In this document: positions 2,060-44,160 of the stretch, piece after piece
Position numbering within the stretch: the first letter of the stretch is position 1
How the letters are laid out: every line of letters starts with the position of its first letter
NCBI GenBank assembly: GCA_017610005.1
Contig: JAFCCU010000002.1
Coordinates: 18,118-82,117 of the forward strand
Source: Candidatus Woesearchaeota archaeon
GTDB taxonomy: Archaea; Nanobdellota; Nanobdellia; Woesearchaeales; B29-G15
Direction: 5' to 3'
DNA: 64,000 nt
Program-made: the position numbers and the translations under genes
Notes under the pieces: generated by a model
Told to the model about the DNA's origin: nothing
Database searches by the model: none
Seen by the model: only the letters and a program-made list of their open reading frames with translations

Positions 2060-3967
2060 GTGTTTCTATTGCCAGATATAATAAAAGAAATACTCAAGCA
2101 TATACCGGATAAGAAAATCTCTGAAGCCGCATTTGAAGGAGCAAATATTGTGCTCTACACTAAAGATGCAAAGTTCTTTAGAGAGAATAGCAGTTTAATA
2201 AAAGAGATAGTTAATACTATCAAAAAAAGAATTGAATTAAGACCGGATCCTTCCATATCCATGGAGGAAGATGATGCTGAAAAAGAGATTAAAAAATTAA
2301 TCCCTAAAGAAGCAGGGATCACAAATATTATCTTTGATGGCCAACGTTCCAAGGTAATAATAGAGGCTGAAAAACCAGGACTTGCAATTGGAAAAAGAGG
2401 AGATATCTTAGCAACAATTCGAGAAAAATGTTTCTGGATCCCAGTTATTAGAAGAACTCCTCCGATTAAATCTGCATTAATTGAAAATATTAGGGGTGTA
2501 TTGTATGAGCATAGTGATTACAGAAGGAAATTTTTAGACAAAGTAGGCCATAGGATTTATGATGGCTGGATTCGAGAGAAGAAACAAGAATGGATAAGAG
2601 TTTCAGTACTTGGTGCAGGGAGGCAGGTAGGAAGATCATGCTTTTTATTACAAACTCCTGAAAGTAGGGTATTATTGGATTGTGGAATTGATGTTGCTTC
2701 TTCTGAAAAAGATGCTTACCCTTATCTTGATGCACCTGAATTTAATATTAAAGAACTTGATGCAGTAATCCTCTCTCATGCACATTTAGACCACTGTGGT
2801 TTTGTGCCTTATCTTTTTAAATTCGGTTTTAGGGGTCCAGTTTATTGCACTAAACCAACAAGAGATATTGCAGCATTATTGCTTTTAGATTATGTAAAAA
2901 TTATGCGTTCAGAAAATAAAAAACCAATATTTGACCAAGATGACATTAAAGAGATGGTTAAACATACTATAACTTTAGAATTTGAAGAAGTAACTGATAT
3001 CACACCTGATTTGAGAATTACATTATATAATGCTGGGCACACAATTGGTTCAGCAATGATTCACATACATGTGGGCAATGGTCTTCATAATATGATGTAT
3101 ACAGGAGACATGAAGTATGGAAAAACTGAATTATTGAACCCTGCTGCAACCTCTTTTCCAAGACTTGAAACTTGTATACTTGAAAGTACATACGGTGGAA
3201 GAGATGATATTTTACCAAGAAGGGCAGACTGTGAAAATGAATTAAAAGATATTATTGCAAAGACCATTAAAAGAAAAGGAAAGGTTTTAATTCCTGTTTT
3301 AGGTGTTGGACGAGCTCAGGAAGTGATGGTAGTTGTTGAAAAGATGTTAAAAGAGAAGAAGCTCAAAAAAGTTCCAGTTATAGTTGACGGAATGGTTTGG
3401 GATGTTACAGCAATTCATACAACCTATCCTGAATTTTTAAACAGAGAACTTAAAAAAATGATCTTTCATAAAGACACTAATCCTTTCTTATCTGAATGTT
3501 TCAGGAGAATTGGCTCTCAAAAAGAACGTAGTCAAGTTATCGAAGATGAAGGCCCTTGTATAATTATGGCAACCTCCGGAATGCTTGTTGGCGGCCCTTC
3601 TGTTGAATACTTAAAACGCCTTGGAGATAATCCTAAAAACTCCCTAGTCTTTGTATGTTATCAGGGAGCAGGCTCTTTAGGAAGAAGAATTCAGAGAGGA
3701 GAAAAAGAATTAATTATGGCAACAAATGGAACCAAGCAAGAGATATTGCATTTGAAAATGGAGCACCACACTATCTCTGGTTTAACTGGACACTCTGGAA
3801 GAAATGAATTAATGAACTTTATCCAAAACTGTAGTCCTAGACCTAATAAGGTAATTTTTAATCACGGTGAAAATTCAAAAGTTTTAAACTTAACAAGCTC
3901 CATGCATAAACGCTTTAGAATTGAAACAATCGCACCAAGAAATCTTGAATCTGTTAGAGTTAAGTAG
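2060..3967 (+). CDS. fttA: Archaeal CPSF1 homolog (aCPSF1/FttA-type KH + metallo-beta-lactamase + beta-CASP ribonuclease)
   Basis: 635 aa with an MBL motif HAHLDHCG and downstream beta-CASP motifs. N-terminal KH-like region. GTG start 1 nt after the proteasome stop, giving the typical psmB-aCPSF1 neighbourhood. Confidence 0.9.
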   Translation: MFLLPDIIKEILKHIPDKKISEAAFEGANIVLYTKDAKFFRENSSLIKEIVNTIKKRIELRPDPSISMEEDDAEKEIKKLIPKEAGITNIIFDGQRSKVIIEAEKPGLAIGKRGDILATIREKCFWIPVIRRTPPIKSALIENIRGVLYEHSDYRRKFLDKVGHRIYDGWIREKKQEWIRVSVLGAGRQVGRSCFLLQTPESRVLLDCGIDVASSEKDAYPYLDAPEFNIKELDAVILSHAHLDHCGFVPYLFKFGFRGPVYCTKPTRDIAALLLLDYVKIMRSENKKPIFDQDDIKEMVKHTITLEFEEVTDITPDLRITLYNAGHTIGSAMIHIHVGNGLHNMMYTGDMKYGKTELLNPAATSFPRLETCILESTYGGRDDILPRRADCENELKDIIAKTIKRKGKVLIPVLGVGRAQEVMVVVEKMLKEKKLKKVPVIVDGMVWDVTAIHTTYPEFLNRELKKMIFHKDTNPFLSECFRRIGSQKERSQVIEDEGPCIIMATSGMLVGGPSVEYLKRLGDNPKNSLVFVCYQGAGSLGRRIQRGEKELIMATNGTKQEILHLKMEHHTISGLTGHSGRNELMNFIQNCSPRPNKVIFNHGENSKVLNLTSSMHKRFRIETIAPRNLESVRVK

Positions 3968-4000
3968 TCTTCAGACTTCTTACTTCTTACTTCAGACTGC
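3965..4000. repeat. Octamer repeat family element (CTTCAGAC / GTCTGAAG units)
   Basis: agtcttcagacttcttacttcttacttcagactg immediately after the aCPSF1 stop. Part of the dispersed family listed in the findings. Confidence 0.5.
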
Positions 4001-4058
4001 TAACTGTTTGATCGCAAGTTTTATATATTTGTATAGTAAAATAGTGTCTGAGGGAAAA

Positions 4059-5507
4059 ATGTCAAAAAAGGTGTTTTTAGTATTACTAATACTGCTATGT
4101 GCTAGTTTTACATATGCAGAAGAATCATTAGATGTTCAAATTGAATTGATTGCAAATGACTTTTCACTTGTACAAGGCACTAATCAATTTGCAGAGTATG
4201 GGATAAAACTTACTAATCCTTATTCTTATGAAGATACCTTTGAATTTCGTGTAAAAGATTTTTCTTGGAATATTTGGACTAATCCCTTATCTGATTATGT
4301 TGGAGGGGGAGTGGATGTTCAACCAGGCGAAACTTATGAAGTCCAGCTTTTTATCGCCCCCACAGGAACTAAAAATATTGGAAGATATTCTATTCCTTTA
4401 ACAATCACAACAAGGTCTAATGGGGAAAAAATCCAAAAGAATCTTGTTGTAGATATTGTTTCAGGAGTCCCAACAATAAAAGAATATGAATTGGGGATTT
4501 TAGTTAATGTTGATCTACCTTCAGTTATCGATCCCCGTGGTAAAACCACCCTGGTTGTTGATGTAGAAAATGTATTTCCTCGAAATATTACTAACATAAA
4601 GTTAGAATTGATTTCAGAATTAATCAGGGGCAGGTCAAACTTTTCACTTGGAAGACTGGGTGAAGAAACATTAGAGTTTCCAATCGAATTAAATGATTAC
4701 CAAAGCCCTCTTCAAGACAAACTTGAATTAAGATTCTCTAAAGATGATGAAGTCTTTAAATCCGTTAAGGTGAATTATGCTGTTTTAAGTTACTCGATTG
4801 TAAATACTGTTTCTGATGAAACCTATGGCAAATTTTTAAAATCAACAAGAGTAATTGAAGTTCATAATGATGGAAATATCGCAAAAAGTCATCAGATTAG
4901 AATACCTTTAAAATTTGGAAGTGGAATTTTTACCAGGACAGATCCAAAAAACTATCTTGTAAAAGATGAAGAAGGCACATTTATGGTTTGGGATTTAAAT
5001 CTTGATAGTCAAGCCAAGTCAACAGTCACAATTAATCAAAATTATCAAGTATTATTTTGGTTTGGCGTTGTTATTATTTTGATAGGATTATTTTATTGGT
5101 TTATGCGTTCACCTGTGTTAATTGCAAAAGAGGCAAAAGTAGTTGAGATTAGAGATGGTGCAGTATCACAGTTGAAGGTATTGCTTCATTTAAGAAATAG
5201 AACTAACAAACCAATTACGGCAATTAAAATTGCAGATCGTGTCCCAGATATTGCACAAATTCTAGAAGAGTTTGACGTTGGTACAATTAGACCTGAAAAA
5301 ATTGTTAGAGACTCCAAAGGAGGTACTTTAATTAAATGGTCCATTTTGAAGCTTGATCCATATGAAGAACGAATTATCAGCTATAAATTAAGATCCAAAC
5401 TTCAAGTTCTTGGAAGCTTTGTCTTGCCTAGCGCCCTTGTTAAATTCAAGAGCCCCGGCGGTAGCAATCTAAAGTCTAAGAGTAAAATGGGGAAAATTAA
5501 TCAGTAA
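4059..5507 (+). CDS. Membrane protein with N-terminal signal peptide, large extracytoplasmic region, one internal TM helix and a C-terminal cytoplasmic domain
   Basis: The ORF-track ORF starts at 3921 but overlaps the aCPSF1 3' end. The in-frame ATG at 4059 (MSKKVFLVLLILLCASFTYA) gives a signal peptide. TM segment VLFWFGVVIILIGLFYWFM. Confidence 0.6.
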   Translation: MSKKVFLVLLILLCASFTYAEESLDVQIELIANDFSLVQGTNQFAEYGIKLTNPYSYEDTFEFRVKDFSWNIWTNPLSDYVGGGVDVQPGETYEVQLFIAPTGTKNIGRYSIPLTITTRSNGEKIQKNLVVDIVSGVPTIKEYELGILVNVDLPSVIDPRGKTTLVVDVENVFPRNITNIKLELISELIRGRSNFSLGRLGEETLEFPIELNDYQSPLQDKLELRFSKDDEVFKSVKVNYAVLSYSIVNTVSDETYGKFLKSTRVIEVHNDGNIAKSHQIRIPLKFGSGIFTRTDPKNYLVKDEEGTFMVWDLNLDSQAKSTVTINQNYQVLFWFGVVIILIGLFYWFMRSPVLIAKEAKVVEIRDGAVSQLKVLLHLRNRTNKPITAIKIADRVPDIAQILEEFDVGTIRPEKIVRDSKGGTLIKWSILKLDPYEERIISYKLRSKLQVLGSFVLPSALVKFKSPGGSNLKSKSKMGKINQ

Positions 5508-5526
5508 GAAGTCTGGAGTCTAAAGG
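5502..5526. repeat. Octamer repeat family element
   Basis: cagtaagaagtctggagtctaaagg overlapping and following the stop of the 4059..5507 gene. Confidence 0.4.
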
Positions 5527-5739
5527 GTATGGCTCAAAATTCAGGGGGGTTTGTAGTATTCAGTTTTTTAAATTTCTTTAGAGGGTTGTTAATTTTTTTG
5601 AAGATGTCATAATTGGGCCTGATTTAGAAAAACTCCAAAAAAGATTGTAAAAAATTAAAAAAATTAATTAAGGATGGCATAATACTTATTAATGAGAGAA
5701 CCCATTATGGATGATAAGTGCATAATAAAAATAAATTAA

Positions 5740-7609: not shown

Positions 7610-7733
7610 CCTCGCCTAGCTCAATGGTAGAGCGTTCGGCTGTAGATCGTTGCTCGACTGTGTTATGATAACATCGAATGATAAGCAGCCAGCCGTTACC
7701 GAAAGGTTCCTGGTTCAAGTCCGGGGGCGGGGA
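7610..7733 (+). tRNA. tRNA-Tyr (anticodon GTA) with a ~52-nt intron at the canonical 37/38 position
   Basis: Hand-folded. Acceptor CCTCGCC/GGCGGGG plus discriminator A. D-arm GCTC-AATGGTA-GAGC. Anticodon stem TTCGG/CCGAA with loop CTGTAGA. Intron ~7647-7698. T-arm CCTGG-TTCAAGT-CCGGG. Short variable loop, i.e. archaeal/eukaryal class I Tyr. Confidence 0.75.
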
Positions 7734-7793
7734 CTCATTTTCTCAGTCTGAAGATAATAGTCTGGAGTACGGAGTCTGCAGTCTGGAGTAAAT
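7704..7793 (+). repeat. Direct repeat copy 1 (tRNA-Tyr 3' third plus ~55 nt downstream)
   Basis: aggttcctggttcaagtccgggggcggggactcattttctcagtctgaagataatagtctggagtacggagtctgcag is repeated almost exactly at 7878..7957. Confidence 0.8.
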
Positions 7794-7877
7794 ATATTTC
7801 CGCCATTCTCTTTAGAGGGTTAATTCGTAGAATTTACCCGAAAGTTTGCTCCTCTGCTTTACAAAGCAGAGACTGTA

Positions 7878-7957
7878 AAGGTTCCTGGTTCAAGTCCGGG
7901 GGCGGGGACTCATTTTCTCAGTCTGAAGATAATAGTCTGGAGTACGGAGTCTGCAGT
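7878..7957 (+). repeat. Direct repeat copy 2 (duplicate of the tRNA-Tyr 3' third plus downstream sequence)
   Basis: Same ~80-nt sequence as 7704..7793. It is preceded by two strong hairpins (gggttaattc-gta-gaatttaccc and ctctgcttt-aca-aagcagag). Confidence 0.8.
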
Positions 7958-8110
7958 AAATATGTATTGAAAACTGAATTTTTCTCTCGTCTAAGCTCCC
8001 TACAGAAAGATTTATAAACAACTCCCAAATCACACAGTAGAGATGGGGCATTTTATCTTCTGAGAGCAATAACAAGTTGTTATAGTTATTAGTAGGTCAA
8101 ATGCAAACAC

Positions 8111-16286: not shown

Positions 16287-16724
16287 ATGGGAAGAAAAAC
16301 AAGTGGCTTAAATGCTGCAAAAAAATTAGTAAAAAGAAGAACAAAGGGCAGATGGATGGATATTAAGTATAAGAAAAAAACCCTTCATTTAAAAGAAAAG
16401 TCAGATCCTTTGAGAGGATCATCTCAGGCAAAAGGGATTGTTCTTGAAAAAGTACAGCTAGAAGCAAAGCAACCAAATTCTGCAATGAGAAAATGCGTCC
16501 GTGTTCAGTTAATCAAGAACGCAAAGCAAGTAACTGCATTTGCACCAGGTGATGGAGCAATTAAGTTTATTGATGAACACGATGATGTAGTCATTGAATG
16601 TATTGGCGGTAATAAGGGCGGATCCAAGGGAGATATCCCTGGAGTTAGATGGCAAGTTATCAAAGTTAACGGCCAGTCACTCGTTGGCTTAATTAGCGGC
16701 AAGATTGAAAAAGCAAGAAGGTAA
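16287..16724 (+). CDS. rps12: Ribosomal protein uS12 (S12/S23e)
   Basis: 145 aa with the conserved [13 protein letters not shown] and GGxxxDIPGVRW motifs. Confidence 0.95.
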
Positions 16725-16726
16725 GG

Positions 16727-16785
16727 CAGTCAGAAGTCAGAAGTCTGAAGTCAGAAGTCAGAAGTCTGAAGTCTGAAGTCTTCGG
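16727..16785. repeat. Tandem octamer repeat (GTCAGAAG / GTCTGAAG x ~7) immediately 3' of rps12
   Basis: ggcagtcagaagtcagaagtctgaagtcagaagtcagaagtctgaagtctgaagtcttcgg. A related unit (cttcagac) sits at 16848-16860, directly after the stop of the convergent lipid-kinase gene. Confidence 0.85.
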
Positions 16786-16858
16786 TGTATATATTTATTG
16801 TAGATTTTAAATTGTTATTGGTTTTAATAGAAAATACTTTTTACTGTAAACTTCAGAC

Positions 16859-17830
16859 TCAAAATTGTTTCACAATTTTGTACGCTTTTGGGATAACTCT
16901 TACAGAATATTGAGTTTCTTGAAGTTGCCCAGATATTACATTTCCATCTGATTCAATGAAATGTCCTTCCCTCAGCTTAAACTCGATATGCTCTCCCTTG
17001 TATAATTTTGCATGTCTTGGTTCATGTTGATTAAGGCAGGTTAAGGGTGAATTTAGAATCTGACCTTTGTTCATTGCATCATAAACAACTATTCTTGCGA
17101 GTCCGTCATCAAGGGGCCCAGGAGGCGCTACCCAAATGCCTGCTCCAGGCGTGAAACCTTTTGCAATAATTAAATCAAATGCCGGTTTATTTCTTTCAAC
17201 AATCTTACCATCAACTTTCAACCATTCAATATAAATTGGTTTGTGGGGAATTAAATTCAGCAAGCCTGCTCCTACATGGGCTGGAATTCCCCTAGATTGT
17301 TTCCTTTCTTTTAATTTTTCAACCCTCTTAATATGTTCAGCAGTCCAGCCAAACCCAAGAAAGTTAAGTGAGTAAGCATCAATCCCTCCAGTTATTTCTA
17401 AAATATCTACTTCTTTTGATTTTCCTTCAACTCCTAAAAGAAATAAATCTTCAAGCGCGTTTGGCAAACCGAGAGCGAAAGCATACCCATTTCCTGTTCC
17501 TGCAGGAATCCATACAATTTCAGGCATATTTTCAAGATGATGGTGCCTTAAGTATGTAACAAAATCAAGCACAGTTCCATCCCCTCCAATCCCCCAAAGC
17601 CTTTCATGGATCCCTGGGTCAAAAAAAGGCATTTGAAACACACCATTAAGAAGCACGGTCTGAGAAATATCTGGGGTAAAGTCATGCCCCGCAGCATTGT
17701 AAACTTCAACATATTGTTCTATATCAAAAGAAATGGGTTGCTCCCGACTAAAAAAACTCCTCCTGCGCCTAACTCCTTCAGCTGCAGGATTAGTAAGTAT
17801 TAGGGCACCATTCACAAAAATGAGAAGCAA
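16859..17830 (-). CDS. DAGK-catalytic-domain family lipid kinase (YegS/BmrU-like)
   Basis: GIGGDGTVLDFV (GGDGT) and WIPAGTGNGYAF (P.GTGNDFAR-like) motifs. TTG start 16 nt downstream of the ileS stop. Confidence 0.7.
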   Translation of the reverse strand: MLLIFVNGALILTNPAAEGVRRRRSFFSREQPISFDIEQYVEVYNAAGHDFTPDISQTVLLNGVFQMPFFDPGIHERLWGIGGDGTVLDFVTYLRHHHLENMPEIVWIPAGTGNGYAFALGLPNALEDLFLLGVEGKSKEVDILEITGGIDAYSLNFLGFGWTAEHIKRVEKLKERKQSRGIPAHVGAGLLNLIPHKPIYIEWLKVDGKIVERNKPAFDLIIAKGFTPGAGIWVAPPGPLDDGLARIVVYDAMNKGQILNSPLTCLNQHEPRHAKLYKGEHIEFKLREGHFIESDGNVISGQLQETQYSVRVIPKAYKIVKQF

Positions 17831-17846
17831 TCATCGCTAAAAAGGG

Positions 17847-20800
17847 TTACGGTTTAAGAGAAATCACAAACTTCTTCCCAATAATCTCAAAACTTCCCTT
17901 ATGCTTAAACTTATTCTCCCCAAAAGAGAGCTTGCTAACACCACATTTTAGTTTTATCTGAGATGAAAAATTCTTAAACATTTTATCACTGACATCTAAT
18001 TCAACTTTATCTTCTTTTTTTAGCCCTGCCTTCTTTCTTAAGTCCTGTACTCTCCTCATAAGCTCTCTTGCTAAACCTTCTTTTTCAAGTTCTTTTGTTA
18101 GTTCAGTATTTAGATATACACGACCGTAGTGGCATTCTCCCATTTGGTAATCCCCTGGCAGGTGTTCTTCAATTACTAAATCATCTCCGTCTAGCTCATA
18201 TTTACCAAGTTTAAATTTTCCTGCTGTAGCTTTTCCTACAAGCTTAGCTGGATTCTCTTTTGCTATAAGTTTTTCAACGTCTCTAACCTCTGCACCATAT
18301 TTTTTACCAAGGGTTTTAAAGTTAGCTTTTACAGCATAATTCACTTTAAAGGTTTGTTTTGTAACAATACTTTTTACATTAGTATGCTTCTCCATCAATG
18401 AAATAAGTGGTTTGATTTTACTTGTAAATTCTTTTTTATTTGGAATGATTGTAGCTTCAATTACTGGCCACCTTATTCCTCTATTTGCTTTTTCTCTGGC
18501 AGCTAAAATTGCCCCAATAAATCCAGTTGCAAGGCCCATTGACTCTTCAAGTTTTTTGTCAATTACTCTTTCATCAGCTTTAGGCCATTTGCAAAGATGA
18601 ACTGATTCTTCTTTTAGATTTAATGGCTTGCGTAAATTTTGCCACATTGCTTCAGAAGCAAATGGGGTAATTGGTGCGAGTAATTTTAAAGAACCAACTA
18701 AAACTTTTCCAATTGTTTCTGCAACAAGCCCAGGATCAACAATTAATTTTTCTCTTGTAAATTGAATATAACTTCTAGACAATTCTAAGAAAAGCTCTTC
18801 AACCTTGCCAGGAATTTTATCAATCTTGTAATTATTAAATAATTCAGTTACTTCTTTGATTGTGGAATTTAATTTTGATAATATATATCTCTCAACTAAA
18901 TCTTCTTTGCCTTTTTTCTTGAAGTTAACATATCCAAGCAAGTAATTATGAACATTCCACAAAACCCCTAAACTTCTATACTTTGTTTTAACATCGTCTG
19001 CATTGTAATTTAAATCAAGCCCTGCATTTGCTCCACCAATACTATAAAAGCGAAAGGCATCTGCCCCAAAGTCTTTTATTACTTCTTGAGGTGAGATTAT
19101 ATTTCCTAAGGATTTTGACATCTTCCTTCCTTTAGAATCCTGGATAAAGCCGTGCATATAACAAGCCTTAAACGAAGGCTTTTTCATTGCAACCATTGAA
19201 CTAACGAGAAGCAGGTTAAACCACCCCCTAATTTGATCTTTACCTTCTAAAATAAAATCAGCAGGGAAAAGTTTTTCAAAATTTTTCTTTGTTGCAGGAA
19301 AGTCTAGGCAATTCCAAGATGAAGTGCCTGCATCAATCCAAACATCTAAAATATCAGGAGACCGAATCATAGTGCCCCCACATTTACATTTCCATGTGCA
19401 TTTGTCAATGTAAGGTTTATGTAAATCCTTTGGAACAAAACCCGCTTTCTTTTCTAGCTCCTTAACTGTACCAATTACATCATAGGCATTGCATTTTTCA
19501 CATTGCCAAATTGGCAACGGAGTTCCCCAGTACCTTTGTCTTGTAATTGAATTATCACGAAGTTGGGTTAACCAAGAATCAAACCAGTTTTGACCAGCCC
19601 AGGCAGGCTCCCATTTAATCTTTTCATTTTCTTTTTTTAAATCTTCAATTAAATCTTCAACCTTGAAAAACCATTGTTTGGTTGTTCTAAATATAACTGG
19701 ATCTTTGCAACGCCAGCAATGGGCATAATCGTGTTCAACTTTGGTTGTTGCAATTAACGCCCCTCTTGATTCTAAATCTTCAATAAATTTCCCATCATCC
19801 TTTTTGGCAGTAAGCCCAGAAAATTTCCCCATTGATTCAGGAAAAACTCCATCCTCCTGCAGGGAATTAAATGGAGGAATACCTTCTTTATGACCTACTT
19901 CATAATCCTCTGGCCCACAGCCAGGTGCCATATGGACAAGCCCTGTTCCAGCAGATAAATCCACGTAGTCTCTACTTAAAACTACTGTGTGGACTTTTTT
20001 ATTTTTTATTTTTTTAAAAAAATCAATTTCGTCAGTTTGTGGATGGACATATTTTAAACCCTCAAGCTCTTCACCTTTAAATTCTTCTATTACCTTGTAA
20101 GGTTTCCCTACAACTGCGTTTAGGAATGGTGCACAAAGTCCAGCCGACACAATCCAGATTTCTCCTTCAACTTCTATTCTTACATAATCTAGCTCGGGAT
20201 GAACCATGACCCCCATATTAAATGGAATTGTCCAAGGAGTAGTTGTCCAGATTACTAAATACTCTCCAGGTTTATCTTTAATTTGTAATTTTACAAAGAT
20301 TGAATCCTCTTTGACATTATGATATTCAAGCTCATGTTTTGCAAGCGCAGTTGAACATGATTTACACCAATGCATTGTTTTCTCGGCTTGGTAAAGCCTT
20401 TTATTTTTTTCTGCTTGTTTTATCAGCCACCATTCACCTTCAATGTATTCTTTTGTTATTGGCATATAAGCGTTATCAAAGTCCATCCAAACTCCAAGAC
20501 TTTGAAATTCTTCATTCATAAAACCCATATTTTCCAGGGCAAATCTCTTACATTCAATTATAAACTTGGCAATCCCATACTTTTCAATATCTTCTTTTGT
20601 TTCTAAATTTAATTTTGCTTGCACTTTTCTTGCAGTAGGGAGCCCATGCATATCATAGCCAGCTCGATCCCATACATCTCGCCCAGCCATCCTAAAATAT
20701 CTGAGAACAGTATCTTTTAGTGATTTATTCCAGGCAGTACCAATGTGAACATGTCCTGAAGTATAAGGCGGGCCATCTAGAAAATAGAAAGACTTTTTCC

Positions 20801-20906
20801 CAATATTTGCTTTTTTTGCCTTTTTGTAAGTATTATTATCCTTCCAAAATTTACTTATTTCCTTTTCTATCTTGTGTGGGTCAAAATTGGACATCATAAT
20901 CACCAA
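17847..20906 (-). CDS. ileS: Isoleucyl-tRNA synthetase
   Basis: 1019 aa class I aaRS. HIGH-type motif GPPYTSGHVHIGTAWNK, YDMHGLP (the IleRS WDCHGLP equivalent), KMSKSLGN, and a CP1 editing-size insertion. Length fits archaeal IleRS. Confidence 0.9.
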   Translation of the reverse strand: MVIMMSNFDPHKIEKEISKFWKDNNTYKKAKKANIGKKSFYFLDGPPYTSGHVHIGTAWNKSLKDTVLRYFRMAGRDVWDRAGYDMHGLPTARKVQAKLNLETKEDIEKYGIAKFIIECKRFALENMGFMNEEFQSLGVWMDFDNAYMPITKEYIEGEWWLIKQAEKNKRLYQAEKTMHWCKSCSTALAKHELEYHNVKEDSIFVKLQIKDKPGEYLVIWTTTPWTIPFNMGVMVHPELDYVRIEVEGEIWIVSAGLCAPFLNAVVGKPYKVIEEFKGEELEGLKYVHPQTDEIDFFKKIKNKKVHTVVLSRDYVDLSAGTGLVHMAPGCGPEDYEVGHKEGIPPFNSLQEDGVFPESMGKFSGLTAKKDDGKFIEDLESRGALIATTKVEHDYAHCWRCKDPVIFRTTKQWFFKVEDLIEDLKKENEKIKWEPAWAGQNWFDSWLTQLRDNSITRQRYWGTPLPIWQCEKCNAYDVIGTVKELEKKAGFVPKDLHKPYIDKCTWKCKCGGTMIRSPDILDVWIDAGTSSWNCLDFPATKKNFEKLFPADFILEGKDQIRGWFNLLLVSSMVAMKKPSFKACYMHGFIQDSKGRKMSKSLGNIISPQEVIKDFGADAFRFYSIGGANAGLDLNYNADDVKTKYRSLGVLWNVHNYLLGYVNFKKKGKEDLVERYILSKLNSTIKEVTELFNNYKIDKIPGKVEELFLELSRSYIQFTREKLIVDPGLVAETIGKVLVGSLKLLAPITPFASEAMWQNLRKPLNLKEESVHLCKWPKADERVIDKKLEESMGLATGFIGAILAAREKANRGIRWPVIEATIIPNKKEFTSKIKPLISLMEKHTNVKSIVTKQTFKVNYAVKANFKTLGKKYGAEVRDVEKLIAKENPAKLVGKATAGKFKLGKYELDGDDLVIEEHLPGDYQMGECHYGRVYLNTELTKELEKEGLARELMRRVQDLRKKAGLKKEDKVELDVSDKMFKNFSSQIKLKCGVSKLSFGENKFKHKGSFEIIGKKFVISLKP

Positions 20907-20929
20907 AAAACAATTGAGTATTTAATATT

Positions 20930-21075
20930 TTTCAAAAACCACCAGTGAGTTCACTTGTGGCCTGTTGAAAATAGTGGTTTTTGATGCTCAGAATTCTACC
21001 CACAAGTGGCATTTTTGAGCACACAGATTCCACTTTGACCACCCATCTGGGGTGGAATTCTGTTGTTTTAAAGAA
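20930..21075 (-). repeat. MITE-like intergenic repeat, copy A (reverse orientation)
   Basis: Shares termini TTTAAACAACAGAATTCCACCC ... CACTGGTGGTTTTTGA and internal blocks (gaattctgagcatcaaaaaccac; tgtgctcaaaaat) with copies at 27762..27932 and 54199..54485. Confidence 0.75.
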
Positions 21076-21198
21076 ATTGGCCCCTAGTTAATTCCTATAA
21101 TCATAAAATTTCCAAAGGATTTCATATTATCAAAGAATAAGAAGTATATTTTAAAGCTTTCGTAAGATTTATTAATCTGGAGCCATTATCAAGTTAAT

Positions 21199-21546
21199 AT
21201 GAAACCTCTTGCTGCAGAATCCCTAGACCAGGGGAGATATTATAATCTAATGGCCGGCGAAGATATTGTTATGGCAAAATACATTCTTGAAAGTGGGGAA
21301 TATTTACATTTTTTAAGTGTCTCTAAATTTCCTAAAAAAAGATCTGCTGTAATTGAATATAGAGTTCCCCTCAGATATGCGAAAGTAAATTGGAGAGGAA
21401 TAATAAGTGGAGGGATTGAAAAAATAACAATTGCCATGTGGTCGCCTACAACCCCATTATCTCCATCAGACTTATCTACACAAGTCTTGGAGACAGCAAA
21501 AAGAATATCTCTGCCCAAAATGCGGGCCTTGCAATCTCTAGGTTAG
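21199..21546 (+). CDS. Hypothetical small protein (115 aa); weak call
   Basis: ATG ORF in a ~900-nt intergenic region. A 92-aa antisense ORF overlaps it, so the coding status is uncertain. Confidence 0.25.
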   Translation: MKPLAAESLDQGRYYNLMAGEDIVMAKYILESGEYLHFLSVSKFPKKRSAVIEYRVPLRYAKVNWRGIISGGIEKITIAMWSPTTPLSPSDLSTQVLETAKRISLPKMRALQSLG

Positions 21547-21623
21547 AACAAGAAGTTACAAATTATTCTGATTTATCGAACACTTTATACCCTAGACTAT
21601 ATACTCTAGACTATTATTATGGG

Positions 21624-21768
21624 GTGTAAGGTTTAGGAGATAATATTTTTCACTCCAGACTCCAGACCCCAGACCCCGTACTCCAGATTGTTGTAGGGTA
21701 TAAGGTATAAGGTTTAGGAGATATTATTTTTCACTTCTGACTTTAGACTTCAAACTTCAGACTGATAG
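21624..21768. repeat. Tandem ~70-nt duplication upstream of the first surface-protein gene
   Basis: Two copies of ggtataaggtttaggagataatatttttcact-C/T-c-A/T-gact... Each ends in octamer-family units (ccagactccagacc / cttcagact). Confidence 0.7.
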
Positions 21769-21772
21769 AATA

Positions 21773-21782
21773 CTTTAAATAT
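21773..21782 (+). promoter_or_regulatory. Putative TATA box for surface-protein gene A
   Basis: ctttaaatat ~35 nt upstream of the ATG at 21814. Confidence 0.3.
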
Positions 21783-21813
21783 AAGTTAACCAGAAATAAC
21801 CCTTGTGATCACC

Positions 21814-23841
21814 ATGATAAAAAAGAGCTGGTTAATTTTCTTAGTAGCACTGCTACTTACATCAACAATAGTTACTGCAGGAGATTATTTATTTCCTGGC
21901 GCTTTTGAAGATAATTCTTTTTGGATCGTTTCAATTGAGAGAGATGATGCAATCCTCCCATGCCTTGGGATGATTGAGATTGGATCTGATGCAATTTTGG
22001 TTTCTCCAGAAGGAGAAGAACATCCTACTGAGATTATTTATGGGCCTCATTTCTTTTCTGAAACCTTTATGAATCGGTGGAGAATTGGTGCTGCAGGATT
22101 AAAATTACCTGAAGAACTATTGGGAGAAGGATGGCAACTTAAGTTAACTTGTGAAACCGAAACAGTAAATTGTGTTGACCAATTGTTTTACAGAGATGAT
22201 GATGGGGTTGAAGAAGAAAAATTACCTGGTTTTGCTTATGGTATTTATGAAGATGAACTACAAAGGGTTGATAATATTTGTGAAGATGATATTGTAACTC
22301 AAGCAGTTTGTAGTGATGACAACATAAGTGTTGAGATAGTAAATCTTGAATGCCCAGCAGGTTGCGCTGGGGCTCACTGTGCTCCTGTATTTGTATGCAT
22401 TGATTCAGATATTGATGAAGAAGATTTTACTGTTATTGCTGGTTTTGTTAATATAACAAGGTATGATGAGGAATATAATGAAACCATTTCTATTGCAGAA
22501 TCTTTAGATGTTTGCGATACTAGGGCATTAACAGAATATTATTGTGAAGATGAAACTGCAACAGAAGCAACTTCTGTTGTAATTTACTGTGATCCTGAAT
22601 GTGCTGACGAAGGATCTTGCATGACCCCAGAAGTTGTTATTGATTGGGATAATATCTCTGGATGTTGTTTAAACAAATTAACAGAGCCTTGCAGATATTA
22701 TGATTCGGCTTTAGAGTGTTGCCCAGTAGAAGGTTATGAAGATGTTGTCGATACCTTTGCGCCTCAAAATCAAGAGGAATGTTTGGCTGACTTCTTTTTC
22801 GAATCAGATAATGCTGAAGCATGTGCAGAGATGGGTCCTGAAGATGCAGAAAATTATAGACTTTGTGAAAAAGGATGCTGTTGTGAATATACGACTGCGG
22901 CTGTTGATTGTGGGCCTGAAGAGGAAACTTGTGAATCAACATTAACGGTTACTGCGGCAAATCAATTATCTAGTGTAGCATGTGCAGTAATTGAAGGCCA
23001 CAGGGCTTACTACACATTTGAAACTATTGAAACTTGTTCAATTGAGTCTTGCTCTGAAAGATTAGGAGGAATAGCTGAAAATCAACCTCCTGTATTTGAG
23101 TTATTAGAAGGTCAAATTGATGTATGCCTTGGAGATGAAGTTAAGTTTGATGTTCAGGCAATTGACGCCGATTCAGACTTTTTAATTTATTCAACTGGAG
23201 TTTTACCTGAAGGTGCAACCTTTCAACAAAAAACAATTCCTCAATATGTTGATGAAGGTTATTCAAGTGAGGGGTATGTCTTTACGTGGACTCCAAGTGA
23301 GGTAGAATCAGTTACTCTTAACTTTTCTGTAACTGATAATCTTTATGAAGTCTCACAAGGAGTTGTAATAAATATTAGTGATTGTAATCCAGTCACAATC
23401 AGCGAATGTAAACCAATGACTCCTCCAAATAATAATACAATTTGTTTGGGAGATAAATTCTCATTTTGTTTAGGGATGGGAGAAATATCAGCAGATTCAT
23501 TGCCTGAGGGAGCAACTTTTAACCAAAATTGCTTTGAATGGGAACCAACTGAAGAAGGCCAATATACTGTAACTTTCGTAAAGGAAGATTGTGAAGAACC
23601 ATTAAATCAAGAGCTGTTTGTACAAGATTGTGATAATGGTTTGGGAGAGTGGATAAAGGGTTTATTTATTGGGGCAGGCATTGCCGCAATAATTGTAGCA
23701 ATCCTTGCTTTTATTGTATGGAAAGGGGTCCTGACGATTGTTTGGTTTGGAATTTCCCTTGCAACAGCTCCTTTGCTATTTATGTCCATATTTGTAGCAA
23801 TCGGAGCAATAGTGGGCGCACTGGTCTGGGGGCTTCTCTAA
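21814..23841 (+). CDS. Cys-rich modular surface protein A: signal peptide, CxDxDGG-type Cys repeats, GCC...GCCC signature module, two He_PIG/cadherin-like domains, C-terminal double TM anchor
   Basis: ATG at 21814 (the ORF-track GTG at 21805). MIKKSWLIFLVALLLTSTIVTA signal. Signature module ~22660-23050 (GCCLNKLTEPCRYYDSALECCPVEGYE...EACAEM...GCCCEY). LPEGATF...W(T/E)P He_PIG-like motifs. C-terminal hydrophobic helices. Confidence 0.8.
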   Translation: MIKKSWLIFLVALLLTSTIVTAGDYLFPGAFEDNSFWIVSIERDDAILPCLGMIEIGSDAILVSPEGEEHPTEIIYGPHFFSETFMNRWRIGAAGLKLPEELLGEGWQLKLTCETETVNCVDQLFYRDDDGVEEEKLPGFAYGIYEDELQRVDNICEDDIVTQAVCSDDNISVEIVNLECPAGCAGAHCAPVFVCIDSDIDEEDFTVIAGFVNITRYDEEYNETISIAESLDVCDTRALTEYYCEDETATEATSVVIYCDPECADEGSCMTPEVVIDWDNISGCCLNKLTEPCRYYDSALECCPVEGYEDVVDTFAPQNQEECLADFFFESDNAEACAEMGPEDAENYRLCEKGCCCEYTTAAVDCGPEEETCESTLTVTAANQLSSVACAVIEGHRAYYTFETIETCSIESCSERLGGIAENQPPVFELLEGQIDVCLGDEVKFDVQAIDADSDFLIYSTGVLPEGATFQQKTIPQYVDEGYSSEGYVFTWTPSEVESVTLNFSVTDNLYEVSQGVVINISDCNPVTISECKPMTPPNNNTICLGDKFSFCLGMGEISADSLPEGATFNQNCFEWEPTEEGQYTVTFVKEDCEEPLNQELFVQDCDNGLGEWIKGLFIGAGIAAIIVAILAFIVWKGVLTIVWFGISLATAPLLFMSIFVAIGAIVGALVWGLL

Positions 23842-23930
23842 CTTTTTTTTAATTAACTCCTTTATGGAGACCATTTTAATACGAAATATTTAAAAGAACA
23901 AGCTAACTTTCGTATTCTTGGTGATTATTT

Positions 23931-24362
23931 ATGGCAATTGTAGGATTTGGATTCACAAAAATACTTGTTGAGAAGAAAAAACAGTTAACCTCAAAAATTA
24001 ACATTAAAAATAATATTGCAATAAAAGATATTGTAGAACATGATTTTCATGATGCAGGAAAAGATAGGCAAGGCCTAAAATTTATATTTGAGTTTATATC
24101 AAGTTATGATCCTGGAGCAGCCGAAATAAGACTTCTTGGAGAGGTTTTTTTTATTGCTGAAACAAAGAAATCTCAAGAAATATTAAACACATGGAAGAAA
24201 GACAAGAAAGTAACAAAAGAAGTTATGCCAATTGTCTTAAACTATGCTCTGTCAAGATCTAATGTTATGGCAATTTCATTATCAAAAGATGCTGGACTTC
24301 CACCTCCTTTGCCCATGCCAAGGGTAAACAATGAAAAGGCCGATAACTCTTATATTGGCTAA
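23931..24362 (+). CDS. Hypothetical cytoplasmic protein (143 aa) between surface-protein genes A and B
   Basis: ATG ORF with no signal peptide and no motif recognised. Confidence 0.4.
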   Translation: MAIVGFGFTKILVEKKKQLTSKINIKNNIAIKDIVEHDFHDAGKDRQGLKFIFEFISSYDPGAAEIRLLGEVFFIAETKKSQEILNTWKKDKKVTKEVMPIVLNYALSRSNVMAISLSKDAGLPPPLPMPRVNNEKADNSYIG

Positions 24363-26606: not shown

Positions 26607-27684
26607 ATGAAAAAAGTAATTCTCTTGCTAATTTTTCTTTTAAACATTTACACAGTCTCAGCAGGATGCTGCATCAATCCAAATAGCTACGCTTGTTAGA
26701 TAGTTGATACTCAATGTTGCCCAACAGATGGAGAATACTCTTCTCCTTTTGGCCCCTCTGGACCAAATGACTATAAGACTTATTGGTTTTATGATTCAAC
26801 ACATCCAGAAGCATGCGCAATAATGGGGCTTGAGTCAAGCCCAAATTACCAATTATGTGAATTTGGATGTTGCTGTGAGCTAATGCCAGAGGGGATAACG
26901 AATGGAAAGCCTATGGCCCAGGCAGCTTGCATGGATAATCATCAACGTTGGCACACTTTTGATCAAATACCAGATTGTTCACCAACAAATTGCGCAGCAA
27001 AATTTAACACAAAAGCTGTTGGAGCAACAACTACTACAATAAATTTAGAAACAGCAAGAAGGAGAACTGAGGAATCAGGAGTTGAAGCAGAAGACTTCTT
27101 TGAAAGAGTGCAAGCATGTATTGGAGAACAGTTAGTGTGGTGTCACGATTGGTATATAATTGAGGAAGGTAAAATCCTCCCAGTGGGCGCAATAAGGGTG
27201 AATGATTGCTTTCATTGGACTCCTGACCAGGAAGGAGAATATCAAATAAGTTTAGGATATACGTTTGATGTGCCAAGTTATATAGAAAGAATGTTGCCAG
27301 AACCCACTTTGAATATTTCAGTGGATTACTGTGGTGATTGCTTTCTTATTGCAGAGATTGCTGATGAAAATACTGCAGAAGGGATATGATCCCTTTTATG
27401 GTTGAAGCTGCAGATGAAGAAGGGGATTTACTCACTTACTCAGCATTAAATTTACCAGAGGGCGCAATTTTCAAAACTGATATTGGATTATTTTTTTGGC
27501 AGAGCAAGGATGCAACACCCGGCATATATGAATTAGAATTTGTTGTAACAGATGGAAAATGCACTGTTTTGAGAAAGTAACTCTTGAGATTGAAGAGTGC
27601 GGCGACACATCAATAGTATCACAGATTCTTGCTATGCTTGCTATAATTTTTGGTGGGGCAACTGTTTATACAATTGCTGCATGA
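26607..27684 (+). pseudogene. Decayed paralog C of the Cys-rich surface-protein family (in-frame TAG plus at least 2 frameshifts)
   Basis: Signal peptide and GCCINPNSYAC then TAG at 26697-26699, exactly where paralogs have the conserved Tyr (C-x-Y-x-D). The frame then continues through CCPTDGEY...EACAIM...GCCCE. Frameshifts near 27386 and ~27575. The He_PIG-like and C-terminal TM remnant (ILAMLAIIFGGATVYTIAA) are in other frames. Confidence 0.75.
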
Positions 27685-27761: not shown

Positions 27762-27932
27762 TTTAAACAAAAGAATTCCACCCTTCTATTGAAGGGTGGT
27801 CTAGGTGGAATTCTGTGTGCTCAAAAATTACCTATGATCGGTGGAATTCTGAGCATCAAAAACCACTCAACAGCGAGCAAGCTTTTCAACATGCCACCAA
27901 TGTATTCACTGGTGGTTTTTGACAAGCAGTTG
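27762..27932 (+). repeat. MITE-like intergenic repeat, copy B
   Basis: Same family as 20930..21075 and 54199..54485. Lies between the pseudogene and surface-protein gene D. Confidence 0.75.
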
Positions 27933-27985: not shown

Positions 27986-29587
27986 ATGAAGAAATTTGTA
28001 TTTGTAGTCATTCTTTTTTTACTCTTTTTAACAGCGTGTGACAAAGATACAGATGGTGATGGAATTTCTGATACTGAAGATAATTGTATTGGTATTAGAA
28101 ACTCGGATCAAATAGATTCAGATAAAGATGGCTGGGGGGATCCATGCGATTTTAATGAAGATCTAAGTGAAACACTTTTATATTTTTCCGCAACCTGGTG
28201 TACTTATTGCCATGAACAGTTACCAATTATTCGAGAACTTGATCAAGACTTTCCAGATTTAGAAATTCAATATCTTGATTTTGATGCAAGGCAAGATTTA
28301 GTTAGGGAATATGGTATTGTGGGTGTGCCTCATTATGTATTTATAAAAGGAGATTGTTGGAAAAAAACAAGAGGTACAACAAGTTATTCAGAATTAGTTA
28401 ATTGGATGGGAAAGGGTGCTTGCGCAAGATCAGCAGCAGTCCGTAGCCAAGGAGTCAATTTGCAGTCTGAAGTCATAAGTCAGAAGTCACTCAAACCCCA
28501 AACCCCAAACCCCAAACCCCAAACCTTACCAACTGGTTGTTGTATAAATCCTAATGAAAATGCGTGTGTTTATTCTGATGATATTGATAAATGTTGCCCA
28601 GTAGATGGTTATGAAGAATCAATAGGACCGCAATCACAAGCTGAATGTAAAGAACATTGGTTCTTTCCCCACGCAACAGAAGAAGCATGCAGCGTAATGG
28701 ATCCATTAACTTATGAAAATGCACAATATTGTGAATTTGGGTGCTGTTGCGAGGCTACCCCCATAGGTATAGCTGCATTTGCCTCAGAAAAAATCAAGTG
28801 TAATGATTATTGGGGAAGTTATGAAGAATTAAATTGCACGGTAAATGATTGTTCTAAATTTATTGAAGGGGGGGCAACATTAAAGACTGCTTCTCGTGTT
28901 TCTCCAATGGCAACAATCTCAGTTACTCAAACAGAAGATGAAACTTGCGTTGATGAATTGTATATTTTTTGTACAGTAAATCCTTTAGCTACTGAGATAT
29001 CAAATTTACCTGCTGGCGCAATAATTACTAACAACTGCATTGAATTCACCCCCACTGAAGCCCGTAGTTATTCAATTACGTTTAGAGAGGGAGATTATTA
29101 TTCAGAGGTACTAAACTTAGAGGTAATAGACTGCTCTGATCCGCCAGTTTTAGGATTCTTGCGAAATCGGAATGTATACAAAAATCAGATATTTAGTATT
29201 AGGGTACGTGCTACTGGGACAGGAGATTTGACATATGTAGTAGAGGATATGCCTGATGATGCCAAATTCAATCCAAAAAAATTAAAATTTTCTTGGATTC
29301 CAAGAGAGGAGAACGTTGGCAAACAATATAATGTTAAATTTATTGTGATAGATTCAAATGGGAGAACTGATGAAAAAACAGTTGAACTTAATGTTAGAAA
29401 TTATTCTTTCATGTGGATAGCTGGTTTGTCATTGGCCCTTGCAGGTTTACTTTACTTAGGTGCATTATTTTCCGGATTGCTTGAATCTCTAACATGGTTT
29501 TCCTCTTCTGCATGGATATATGTTGCAGGGGCTTGTATTGCGATATCCTTTATTCTGGTCGCGCTTTATTTTCTTTCGGGATTATGA
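27986..29587 (+). CDS. Cys-rich modular surface protein D with thrombospondin type-3 repeats and a thioredoxin-like CxxC domain
   Basis: Lipobox-like signal (FLLFLTAC). TSP3 repeats DKDTDGDGISDTEDNC / DSDKDGWGDPCD. Trx-fold motif LLYFSATWCTYCHEQ...GVPHYVFI. Pro/Thr linker encoded by repeats. Signature module ~28535-28860 (GCCINPNENACVYSDDIDKCCPVDGYE...EACSVM...GCCCEA). He_PIG-like LPAGAIITNNCIEFTPT. C-terminal TMs. Confidence 0.8.
   Translation: MKKFVFVVILFLLFLTACDKDTDGDGISDTEDNCIGIRNSDQIDSDKDGWGDPCDFNEDLSETLLYFSATWCTYCHEQLPIIRELDQDFPDLEIQYLDFDARQDLVREYGIVGVPHYVFIKGDCWKKTRGTTSYSELVNWMGKGACARSAAVRSQGVNLQSEVISQKSLKPQTPNPKPQTLPTGCCINPNENACVYSDDIDKCCPVDGYEESIGPQSQAECKEHWFFPHATEEACSVMDPLTYENAQYCEFGCCCEATPIGIAAFASEKIKCNDYWGSYEELNCTVNDCSKFIEGGATLKTASRVSPMATISVTQTEDETCVDELYIFCTVNPLATEISNLPAGAIITNNCIEFTPTEARSYSITFREGDYYSEVLNLEVIDCSDPPVLGFLRNRNVYKNQIFSIRVRATGTGDLTYVVEDMPDDAKFNPKKLKFSWIPREENVGKQYNVKFIVIDSNGRTDEKTVELNVRNYSFMWIAGLSLALAGLLYLGALFSGLLESLTWFSSSAWIYVAGACIAISFILVALYFLSGL
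28461..28527. repeat. In-frame simple-sequence tract inside gene D: octamer-family units followed by (AAACCCC) x 4.7
   Basis: cagtctgaagtcataagtcagaagtcac then aaacccc x4 plus aaacc (28493-28525). It encodes QSEVISQKSLKPQTPNPKPQT. Confidence 0.85.
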
Positions 29588-40297: not shown

Positions 40298-40415
40298 ATC
40301 AGTCTGGAGTTAGAAGATTGAAGTTTGAAGTTTGAAGTTTGAAGTTTGAAGTGAAAAAAGAAGTTCAAACCACAAAACTCACACCTCAAATCTCATATCA
40401 GTCTGAAGACTGAAC
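40298..40415. repeat. Octamer/heptamer repeat element in the divergent valS / ABCE1 intergenic region
   Basis: atcagtctggagttagaagattgaag then (gaagttt) x4 then ...atcagtctgaagactgaac, which ends in the hairpin cagtc-tgaa-gactg. Confidence 0.8.
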
Positions 40416-43978: not shown

Positions 43979-43980
43979 TT

Positions 43981-44160
43981 TTATCCTCCTAAAAAATATA
44001 TATCTCACAGAATCGCAAGGTCTTCACCTCTTAAAAATTAGAATGAAGCTTGATTAATAAACTTTTGTATAAAGGAGTATATAACAAGGCCAAAACCCAC
44101 AATCATTATAACAATTAAACCTCAATATATTGGTTTATGCTGAGGATATCTTAGCAAAAT
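43981..44160. repeat. Conserved upstream block, copy 1 (shared with 46098..46262)
   Basis: ttatcctcct...cacagaatcgcaaggtcttcacctcttaaaaattagaatgaagcttgattaataaac...ggccaaaac...aaacctc is ~85-90% identical to the block upstream of the paralogous peptidase. Confidence 0.8.

Follow-up and report, generated by a model that had tools for sequence, protein, structure and literature searches.

What kind of element is the run of short repeats that begins just after the rps12 stop codon, at 16727-16785, in a 64,000-nucleotide stretch of a Candidatus Woesearchaeota archaeon genome (GenBank assembly GCA_017610005.1, contig JAFCCU010000002.1; this whole stretch is called the window below)? The initial annotation described it as part of a dispersed octamer family lying mostly just 3' of genes, and listed termination or 3'-end stability elements, protein-binding sites and a selfish simple-sequence family as possible roles. 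The flagged run is one of about 15 tandem arrays of AGTNNNR heptamers, distributed over 8-10 loci between 3.9 and 46.5 kb of the window. The arrays probably represent a lineage-specific heptanucleotide simple-sequence-repeat family that has grown by slippage, has been copied by some spreading step and survives where it is harmless.

The repeat unit is a heptamer and not an octamer. Tandem Repeats Finder (TRF) assigns the flagged array a period of 7 with 7.6 copies (16728-16780), 93% matches and a 21-nt super-period; the dinucleotide GC precedes the first AGTCAGA in the flagged stretch. The apparent octamer arises because one heptamer is read together with the first base of the next unit. Over the whole window, TRF returns period-7 rows at 10 places, with super-periods of 14 and 21 nt within some arrays. 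When lags 4-14 are scanned, non-AT-rich self-similar runs appear at lag 7 and its multiple 14 only, with five arrays at lag 7 and, the multiple 14 excepted, none at the other lags from 4 to 13. Three AGT trinucleotides spaced by 7 nt occur 34 times and those at spacings of 4-6 and 8-12 occur 0-2 times each, and AGT/ACT is the most frequent of all 64 trinucleotides repeated at 7-nt spacing. The three-unit pattern has 10 matches versus 0.00 expected. In total the arrays cover 566 bases, or about 8.8 bp per kb of the window.

A k-mer count over the window, against expectation as the initial annotation had proposed genome-wide, shows that its octamers are over-represented: GTCTGAAG has 15 matches versus 1.73 expected (0 of 100 shuffles reach 15), GTCAGAAG has 8 versus 1.4 and GTCTGGAG has 8 versus 0.9. 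Once the arrays are masked, the counts fall to the background level (2, 1 and 1 versus 1.3, 1.3 and 0.8 expected), and the repeats therefore constitute a family of tandem arrays and not one motif that is dispersed. From 47 to 64 kb, the final 17 kb of the window, there are neither arrays nor octamers, although many genes are located there. Nor is the family limited to three octamers, since its consensus is the wider AGT-[C/T/A]-[T/A]-[G/A]-[A/G]. In a profile of ~65 units, information content is 1.2-1.9 bits per position across the AGT core and 0.3-0.5 bits at positions 4-7; AGTCTGA (11), AGTCAGA (7), AGTTTGA (5) and AGTCTGG (4) are the units seen most often. All 10 loci listed originally hold heptamer-type units on inspection, and the individual arrays are as follows.

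3966-4005, minus strand: AGTTAGC AGTCTGA AGTAAGA AGTAAGA AGTCTGA AGACTAC, on the TAG stop of aCPSF1/FttA (2060-3967) and ending ~15 nt short of a TATA-like box that precedes the next gene (ATG at 4059).
5503-5526, plus strand: short array AGTAAGA AGTCTGG AGTCTAA, with the TAA stop of a 482-aa secreted/membrane protein (4059-5507) inside its first unit.
7745-7793, plus strand: seven units, AGTCTGA AGATAAT AGTCTGG AGTACGG AGTCTGC AGTCTGG AGTAAAT, beginning 11 nt after tRNA-Tyr(GUA).
7920-7961, plus strand: paralogue of the preceding array with one AGTCTGG unit fewer, within the 81-nt perfect direct repeat D7 (7702-7782 = 7877-7957).
16728-16782, plus strand: the flagged array, (AGTCAGA AGTCAGA AGTCTGA)x2 AGTCTGA AGTCTTC, 7.6 units, beginning 3 nt after the rps12 stop.
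16836-16859, minus strand: AGTCTGA AGTTTAC AGTAAAA AGTATTT, behind the convergent DAGK/YegS-like gene and in its sense orientation, the first base being the A of that gene's TGA stop.
21582-21614, minus strand: AGTCTAG AGTATAT AGTCTAG GGTATAA, with a 14-nt super-period (TRF).
21652-21692, minus strand: AATCTGG AGTACGG GGTCTGG GGTCTGG AGTCTGG AGTGAAA, first of two composite units spaced by 81 nt (D6).
21733-21766, minus strand: AGTCTGA AGTTTGA AGTCTAA AGTCAGA AGTGAAA, ending ~7 nt before the TATA-like box of a He_PIG surface-protein gene (21805).
28464-28526, plus strand: AGTCTGA AGTCATA AGTCAGA AGTCACT followed by (CAAACCC)x5, 63 nt and 9 units, in frame in a thioredoxin/TSP3/He_PIG membrane protein.
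40301-40354, plus strand: AGTCTGG AGTTAGA AGATTGA (AGTTTGA)x4 AGTGAAA, in the divergent valS/abcE1 spacer.
40365-40395, plus strand: reverse-type units TCAAACC ACAAAAC TCACACC TCAAATC TCATATC, an imperfect complement of 40301-40354.
40399-40413, plus strand: terminal unit pair forming the hairpin CAGTC-TGAA-GACTG, which lies where the initial annotation had placed it.
46371-46401, plus strand: left palindrome arm (AGTCTGA AGTTGAA)x2 AGTAACT, in a 137-aa secreted-protein gene and antisense to it.
46403-46433, minus strand: right palindrome arm AGTCAGA AGTCCGA AGTCCGA AGTCTAA AGTTACT, in the coding sense of the same gene.

The tandem 70-mers described at 21650-21768 are indeed repeats, although they are better stated as two copies 81 nt apart that are 81% identical, each composite unit joining ~30 nt of unique sequence to a heptamer array.

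The arrays are placed with a strong bias. About 90% of the window is coding, and 76% of the array bases fall within the 10% that is non-coding. The description 'mostly just 3' of genes' is upheld by a positional check: five of the eight intergenic clusters start no more than 11 nt from a gene 3' end, where 0.38 would be expected (P<5e-5; random positions within intergenic DNA, 20000 permutations, of which 0 reach five). These clusters are found at the 3' ends of aCPSF1, the 482-aa protein, tRNA-Tyr, rps12 and the DAGK-like gene, and four of the five gene-end arrays are in sense orientation to the upstream gene. The array after aCPSF1 and the array upstream of the He_PIG gene are antisense, and another lies in a divergent promoter spacer. 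Arrays begin after stops and end before TATA-like boxes, and therefore occupy the stretch between a stop and the next promoter. The stops themselves are native: aCPSF1 and S12 align to the last residue with their orthologues, and the DAGK/YegS-like kinase is complete, with Pfam YegS_C matched to position 157 of 158. The idea that arrays truncate genes and thereby 'capture' stops was rejected on these alignments and the Pfam match.

Turnover of the arrays is suggested by paralogous copies and by comparison with relatives. The 3' part of tRNA-Tyr and its trailer are duplicated perfectly over the 81 nt of D7, and beyond this repeat the two trailer arrays differ by exactly one AGTCTGG unit. Among 81 Woesearchaeota loci (1.18 Mb), AGT-phase hits number 0.33 per 64 kb, where the window has 34, and these loci are free of other GC-containing heptamer families. 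The nearest ValRS relative, L081, is 76% identical, and the window's ValRS cluster has one member. The valS/abcE1 spacer of L081 is 249 nt long versus 253 nt in the window and its flanks can be aligned, with unrelated sequence and no array in the middle, where the window has (AGTTTGA)n. The reverse-type tract at 40365-40395 is partly ancestral, a similar AAACCCTCAAAACCTCA being found in L081. L001 is the closest S12 relative and shares the S12/DAGK/IleRS synteny of the window; its S12 and kinase open reading frames (ORFs) overlap with no spacer, whereas the window has a 134-nt spacer bounded by inverted arrays.

Several features are common to the array loci beyond the units themselves. The non-array strings CTCAAACCCC, ACACCTCAAA, TCTTTAGAGGGTT and TATCAGTCTG recur in consistent orientation, which points to dispersal of longer segments and not to independent birth. 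The exact 13-mer TCTTTAGAGGGTT, followed by AATT, is found at 5575-5587 and 7809-7821, 64-72 nt downstream of the starts of two arrays, and suggests that these two loci derive from one longer segment. Arrays start with C-AGTC in 9 of 11 independent cases, giving the palindrome CAGTCTG, and about half of them end in AGT[G/A]AAA. Inverted array pairs are found at 16728-16859, 40301-40413, 46371-46433 and 3966-4005; the loci at 7745, 21582-21766 and 5503 have a single orientation.

Two arrays lie inside coding sequences, as the initial annotation had stated: one in gene D (27986-29587, tract 28464-28526) and one in the gene for the 137-aa secreted protein (46371-46433). Both tracts are 63 nt long, comprise nine units and are in frame. 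The gene D tract encodes QSEVISQKSLKPQTPNPKPQTLP, a linker between the thioredoxin and Cys-rich domains, and two paralogues of gene D lack ~28 residues exactly at the tract; this alignment was the sole informative comparison for the insertion boundaries inside the two genes. No full-length homologue of gene D was found among 5.8 billion proteins. The imperfect palindrome in the 137-aa protein encodes SQKSEVRSLKLLSTSDFQLQT, and a homologue search with this protein returned itself and four weak matches. Translation confirms the SQKSEV-like peptide reported for both copies, which arises because three heptamers traverse all frames, so that sense AGTCWGA yields S-Q/L-K-S-E-V. In both genes, the unit that would give an in-frame TGA reads GTC-ATA or GTC-CGA. 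When one unit is gained or lost in silico, the 533-aa gene D product is cut to 184 or 191 aa and the 137-aa secreted protein to 52 or 70 aa; with three units lost, the frame is kept. The (CAAACCC)x4.9 portion of the gene D tract is perfect (TRF). Its minus strand reads GGGGTTTGGGGTTTGGGGTTTGGGG, a four-tract G-quadruplex motif at 28496-28520 that is the single repeat-derived motif in a G-quadruplex scan of the window and not a family trait. Another such motif, GGGTTTTTGGGGCTTGCAGGGCTCTGGGG at 37514-37542 on the plus strand, has no relation to the repeats and is found close to the 3' end of an 830-aa gene.

TCAGA and TCTGA are reverse complements, and mixed arrays are therefore able to self-pair. 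Pairing of units into stem-loops, which had been proposed for the family, is supported at three loci that fold better than shuffles, with z of -3.5 for the rps12 array, -2.5 for the valS/abcE1 spacer and -4.35 for the palindrome in the small gene. Stem-loops are not a family property, because the seven other array segments fold no better than shuffles (z -1.0 to +1.3). Archaeal termination depends on oligo-T tracts and not on hairpins. No T run directly follows a sense-oriented array, and the sense arrays contain none. A role as termination elements is thus unlikely, given sense arrays without T runs and no family-wide hairpin. An intrinsic-terminator-like or repetitive extragenic palindromic (REP)-like stem-loop was rejected since a stable hairpin is present at three loci only, with no adjoining T run.

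Heptamer arrays also occur widely in other public sequence. The three-unit AGTC pattern is present in at least 120 IMG/VR viral contigs and in no fewer than 120 metagenome contigs (GC 33-71%); in many of these a forward array is followed by an inverted copy. Two permuted control heptamers are equally frequent among the viral matches listed, and their matches are mostly true tandem arrays too. Conservation of the first three positions appears in the controls as well, and the AGT conservation in these contigs is for that reason attributed to a selection effect of the pattern. AGTC was accordingly rejected as a special universal heptamer: public data commonly contain tandem heptamers of many different sequences, and nothing demonstrable sets AGTC apart. 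A group of contigs with GC 0.57-0.68 (L450, L507, L457/L523, L461, L519, L526 and L512/L489) carries heterogeneous AGTC arrays, a short loop and the reverse complement, as in the long heptamer hairpin AGTCTGAAGTCTGGAGTCTGAAGTCAAAAGCAGTTTTTGACTTCAGACTCCAGACTTCAGACT of L450; these contigs are unrelated to the window and probably bacterial. Others (L527, L529, L500, L516 and L545, with GC 0.46-0.50, and IMG/VR L107/L116/L160 and L108) are very rich in AGT-phase arrays, of which as many as 25 lie within 3.6 kb and most consist of AGTGTGA/AGTGTGG. No annotated phage matches were found for the heptamer-bearing viral contigs.

Of the roles originally listed, 'selfish simple-sequence family' lies nearest to the evidence. 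The units are arranged head to tail around an AGT core, are absent at the orthologous sites of relatives and change by whole units. The arrays lie almost wholly in otherwise unconstrained DNA, namely after native stops, before promoters and in surface-protein linkers; the linker arrays have lengths divisible by 21 nt and avoid TGA codons in frame. In the proposed mechanism, replication slippage by one, two or three units would grow and shrink the arrays. New loci would arise when longer segments that bear an array are copied, whether by ectopic recombination, by templated repair or by an unknown form of mobility. Purifying selection would then purge arrays that harm coding sequence or promoters, leaving a bias to positions just after stops. 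Most arrays would have no dedicated function; a few untranslated regions could incidentally acquire hairpins, and the two surface-protein genes might be switched by frameshifts.

A number of observations weigh against this slippage-based reading. Its basis is 64 kb of one genome, and a change in unit number is seen between paralogous copies only. Pure slippage leaves unexplained the spread of one unit family to 8-10 loci, the C-AGTC starts with their palindrome and the AGT[G/A]AAA ends. Arrays start 0-3 nt from stops even between convergent genes, where there is no promoter constraint. At two sites an array appears to substitute sequence without a net change in length: the valS/abcE1 spacer has nearly the same length in window and relative (253 versus 249 nt), and the small protein can be aligned through the tract with its weak homologues. 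Finally, most arrays are imperfect, which lowers slippage rates.

The main functional alternative is that the arrays are a cis-acting 3'-untranslated-region or intergenic element, protein-bound or structured, that sets mRNA 3'-end stability or processing in a small post-transcriptional regulon. The strong placement by native 3' ends, the predominance of sense orientation at gene ends (four of five), the conservation of the AGT core and of the CAGTCTG start while positions 4-7 drift, and the three loci that fold better than shuffles all speak for such an element, and a comparable proposal exists for the TAACTGA repeats of Beggiatoaceae (PMC4679880). It is nevertheless unlikely: orientation is mixed (the aCPSF1 array and the one upstream of the He_PIG gene are antisense, and another is in a divergent promoter spacer), seven segments show no folding beyond shuffles, and behind tRNA-Tyr a T-rich stretch, probably the transcript end, precedes the array. 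Relatives conserve none of this, and the gene-rich last 17 kb have no arrays. The general dependence of archaeal termination on oligo-T tracts counts against it as well. Another alternative is a miniature mobile element that is non-autonomous, or an insertion able to form hairpins, with heptamers making up its ends (...CAGTCTGAAGT ... ACTTCAGACTG...); it would insert at gene boundaries and expand internally by slippage. Such an element would account for the inverted pairs at four loci, the 134-nt spacer with inverted bounding arrays where L001 has overlapping genes, the sharp conserved 5' edge with C at -1 in 9 of 11 arrays, the common non-array strings and the forward-plus-inverted AGTC arrays of unrelated high-GC contigs (L450, L507, L457, L461 and L519). 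Within the 64 kb, though, neither constant length nor a conserved internal core nor target-site duplications were seen, no transposase or HUH nuclease gene lies next to any array, several loci have a single orientation and the valS/abcE1 spacer is not lengthened; such an element is improbable. A less conventional possibility, and a highly doubtful one, is that the arrays did not grow passively by slippage but were left behind by an unrecognised copy-and-insert mechanism, which places polar heptamer tracts at the ends of genes. The CAGTCTG start, the degenerate AGTRAAA end and the frequent inverted partner would then be products of that process, and the long shot extends to the same process acting in unrelated bacteria, to which the metagenome contigs with forward-plus-inverted AGTC-heptamer arrays would belong. 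Because of the C-AGTC starts, the common strings and the length-neutral replacement, a mobile-element or templated-copy reading is kept, at a correspondingly low probability. If true, a copy-and-insert process would explain the spread of heptamer families, a question open since the cyanobacterial heptamers were described.

Selection for slippage itself is the basis of a further explanation, in which the arrays in and upstream of surface-protein genes are contingency loci that switch the surface of an episymbiotic archaeon by phase variation. The unit length is not a multiple of 3 and a one-unit change is computed to truncate both proteins; in addition, the gene D tract contains the perfect (CAAACCC)x4.9 run, the paralogous tRNA-Tyr copies differ by one unit, and other arrays lie just upstream of the promoters of secreted or He_PIG proteins. 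The association with surface proteins is weak, because the window is rich in such genes anyway, and the longest array follows rps12, with others after the housekeeping genes for aCPSF1, a tRNA and a lipid kinase. Most tracts are imperfect, an off-state variant was not observed in the single genome window, and a phase-variation role has been judged unlikely for bacterial heptamers (PMC4692102), all of which makes selected switching very unlikely here. Practically no weight can be given to the octamer as a DNA-uptake or genome-wide signal motif, like the DNA uptake sequence (DUS) of Neisseria or the uptake signal sequence (USS) of Haemophilus. In its favour are the over-representation of the octamer and the inverted pairs after genes. 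The Neisseria uptake sequence GCCGTCTGAA contains GTCTGAA, as the octamer does. The uptake reading is refuted in the window by the masked counts, which are at background outside the arrays, with no octamers from 47 to 64 kb; moreover, the tandem layout is unlike the single copies of uptake sequences, which occur about once per kb, genes included. A resemblance to CTGRAG, the restriction site of Eco57I-type enzymes, was given no weight, because no gene for such an enzyme was seen in the window.

The surroundings of the arrays include further features of the window, which has a GC content of ~35%. Its S12 is at most 83% identical to sequences from Woesearchaeota/Nanoarchaeota metagenome-assembled genomes, which assigns the window to a DPANN archaeon, and Pfam identifies aCPSF1/FttA, S12, a DAGK/YegS-like kinase, IleRS, ValRS, ABCE1, CysRS and a secreted Cys-rich TSP3/He_PIG set. 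S12 ends an RNA polymerase/L30e/NusA cluster in Woesearchaeota loci L001-L080, of which L001 alone has the S12 / DAGK(-) / IleRS(-) arrangement of the window (16287-24362); the unannotated protein at 23931-24362, a candidate S7, does not directly follow S12. The tRNA-Tyr(GUA) gene at 7610-7733 has an intron of ~53 nt and an Rfam score of 50.1 bits and is missed by ARAGORN. Its repeated segment, which runs from ~position 41 and includes 48 nt of trailer, recurs 175 nt downstream; a second complete tRNA is absent, and the repeat looks like an attachment-site pair from an integrated, since-lost element, or a local duplication.

The mechanical ORF calls for ValRS, ABCE1 and the ORF at 3921 begin too far upstream. 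A start at 40220 is probable for ValRS, since a 100% identical database protein, P0001, has 812 aa; ABCE1 probably starts at ATG 40474, which aligns with the L081 start; and the 528-aa ORF at 3921 probably starts at ATG 4059, ahead of a signal peptide. A paralogous family of secreted or membrane-anchored proteins (21805-23841, 26823-27389, 27986-29587, 31066-32469, 33660-35078 and 35132-37624) shares the Cys-rich module GCCxN...CCPxxGY...CxxGCCC, combined with thrombospondin type 3 repeats and He_PIG, thioredoxin or papain-like parts. Two M49-peptidase-like paralogues are adjacent (42209-44008 and 44227-46095; D2/D10). A 133-nt repeat, 87% identical (43991-44123 and 46111-46243), spans their start and upstream regions, its second copy overlapping the 3' end of the small secreted-protein gene. 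A second dispersed repeat of ~100-150 nt, unrelated to the heptamers and intergenic, is found at 20929-21047 (minus strand), 27824-27925 (plus strand) and 54280-54411 (plus strand). It has the internal sub-repeats GTGGAATCTGTGTGCTCAAAAAT and GGTGGAATTCTGAGCATCAAAAACCAC and the inverted pair AAAAACCAC...GTGGTTTTT; the repeat may be a family of small RNA genes or a transposable element of the miniature inverted-repeat type (MITE), and has no Rfam match at gathering score.

As a case from the tiny, streamlined genome of a DPANN archaeon, these arrays show that heptamer families require neither bacterial replication machinery nor a large genome, that the post-stop bias recurs across domains and that repeats can be absorbed into surface-protein linkers. 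For annotation, such tracts are not to be read as terminators or motifs. They provide a small, tractable system for how repeat families spread, and by themselves reveal no new mechanism.

Among known systems, the 7-bp repeats upstream of hmw1A/hmw2A in Haemophilus influenzae are reportedly an example of phase-variable simple-sequence repeats. They resemble the present arrays as heptamer tracts whose unit number could switch or tune surface-protein expression by slippage, and differ in that most arrays of the window are imperfect and follow housekeeping genes, with no allelic variation observed among them. Archaea are reported to have the lowest short-tandem-repeat density of all domains, 1.02 bp per kb (PMC12699852), versus ~8.8 bp per kb for this family alone, although the definitions of a repeat differ between the two figures. 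No heptanucleotide repeat family in an archaeon was found described in the searched literature. The Borg repeats of Methanoperedens (PMC9879509) are likewise archaeal and rapidly evolving, occur in both intergenic and genic positions and form low-complexity disordered linkers in proteins. Borg units are locus-specific and longer, and in genes their length is divisible by 3, whereas the window has one 7-nt family at all loci and only the total 63-nt tract keeps the frame. Borg-type tandem repeats were rejected on the 7-nt unit and its presence at all loci.

Although the initial annotation did not recognise the family, its kind is known in bacteria, where the same coding-strand bias to the first 50 bp after stops has been described (PMC4692102; PMC4679880). 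Heptanucleotides are reported to be the most abundant class of long simple-sequence repeat (LSSR) in many bacteria and are attributed to polymerase slippage (PMC4679880). TAACTGA repeats of marine Beggiatoaceae, some cyanobacteria and Bacteroidetes occur in 2-6 copies at many intergenic sites, including ribosomal-protein operons, with occasional copies in ORFs, a patchy phylogenetic distribution and no known spreading mechanism (PMC4679880). The window likewise has a single heptamer family that is intergenic with occasional in-gene copies, and the reverse complement of TAACTGA, read as AGTTATC, also begins with AGT. The unit sequence differs, and TAACTGA lies mostly immediately upstream of starts in forward orientation, suggesting translational control, whereas the arrays of the window lie mostly immediately after stops in mixed orientation.

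The closest published parallels are the intergenic heptanucleotide repeats GGGAATC of Xanthomonas and GGGGA(C/T)T of Nostoc, together with the short tandemly repeated repetitive sequences (STRRs) of Calothrix/Anabaena, all of which have no known function (PMC4692102). GGGAATC and GGGGA(C/T)T repeats lie 0-50 bp after stops on the coding strand, some overlap the stop, and inverted pairs occur (PMC4692102). The published families are bacterial, mostly from large or high-GC genomes, whereas the host here is a DPANN archaeon of ~35% GC; AGTCWGA is not G-rich, its units are heterogeneous within arrays, and two arrays lie in frame in genes. The 28496-28520 segment (minus strand) is, like the G-rich families, a four-tract G-quadruplex motif, but as the one repeat-derived motif of its type in the window it led to rejection of a GGGNATC-type G-quadruplex heptamer family. 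Variation between relatives is extensive in the published families (PMC4692102) and may be so in the present one, given the one-unit difference between paralogous copies and the lack of arrays at orthologous sites in L081 and L001. In their remaining properties the two groups agree: both consist of dispersed short arrays of 2 to ~8 units with a non-coding bias, concentrated after stops and with inverted pairs (PMC4692102).

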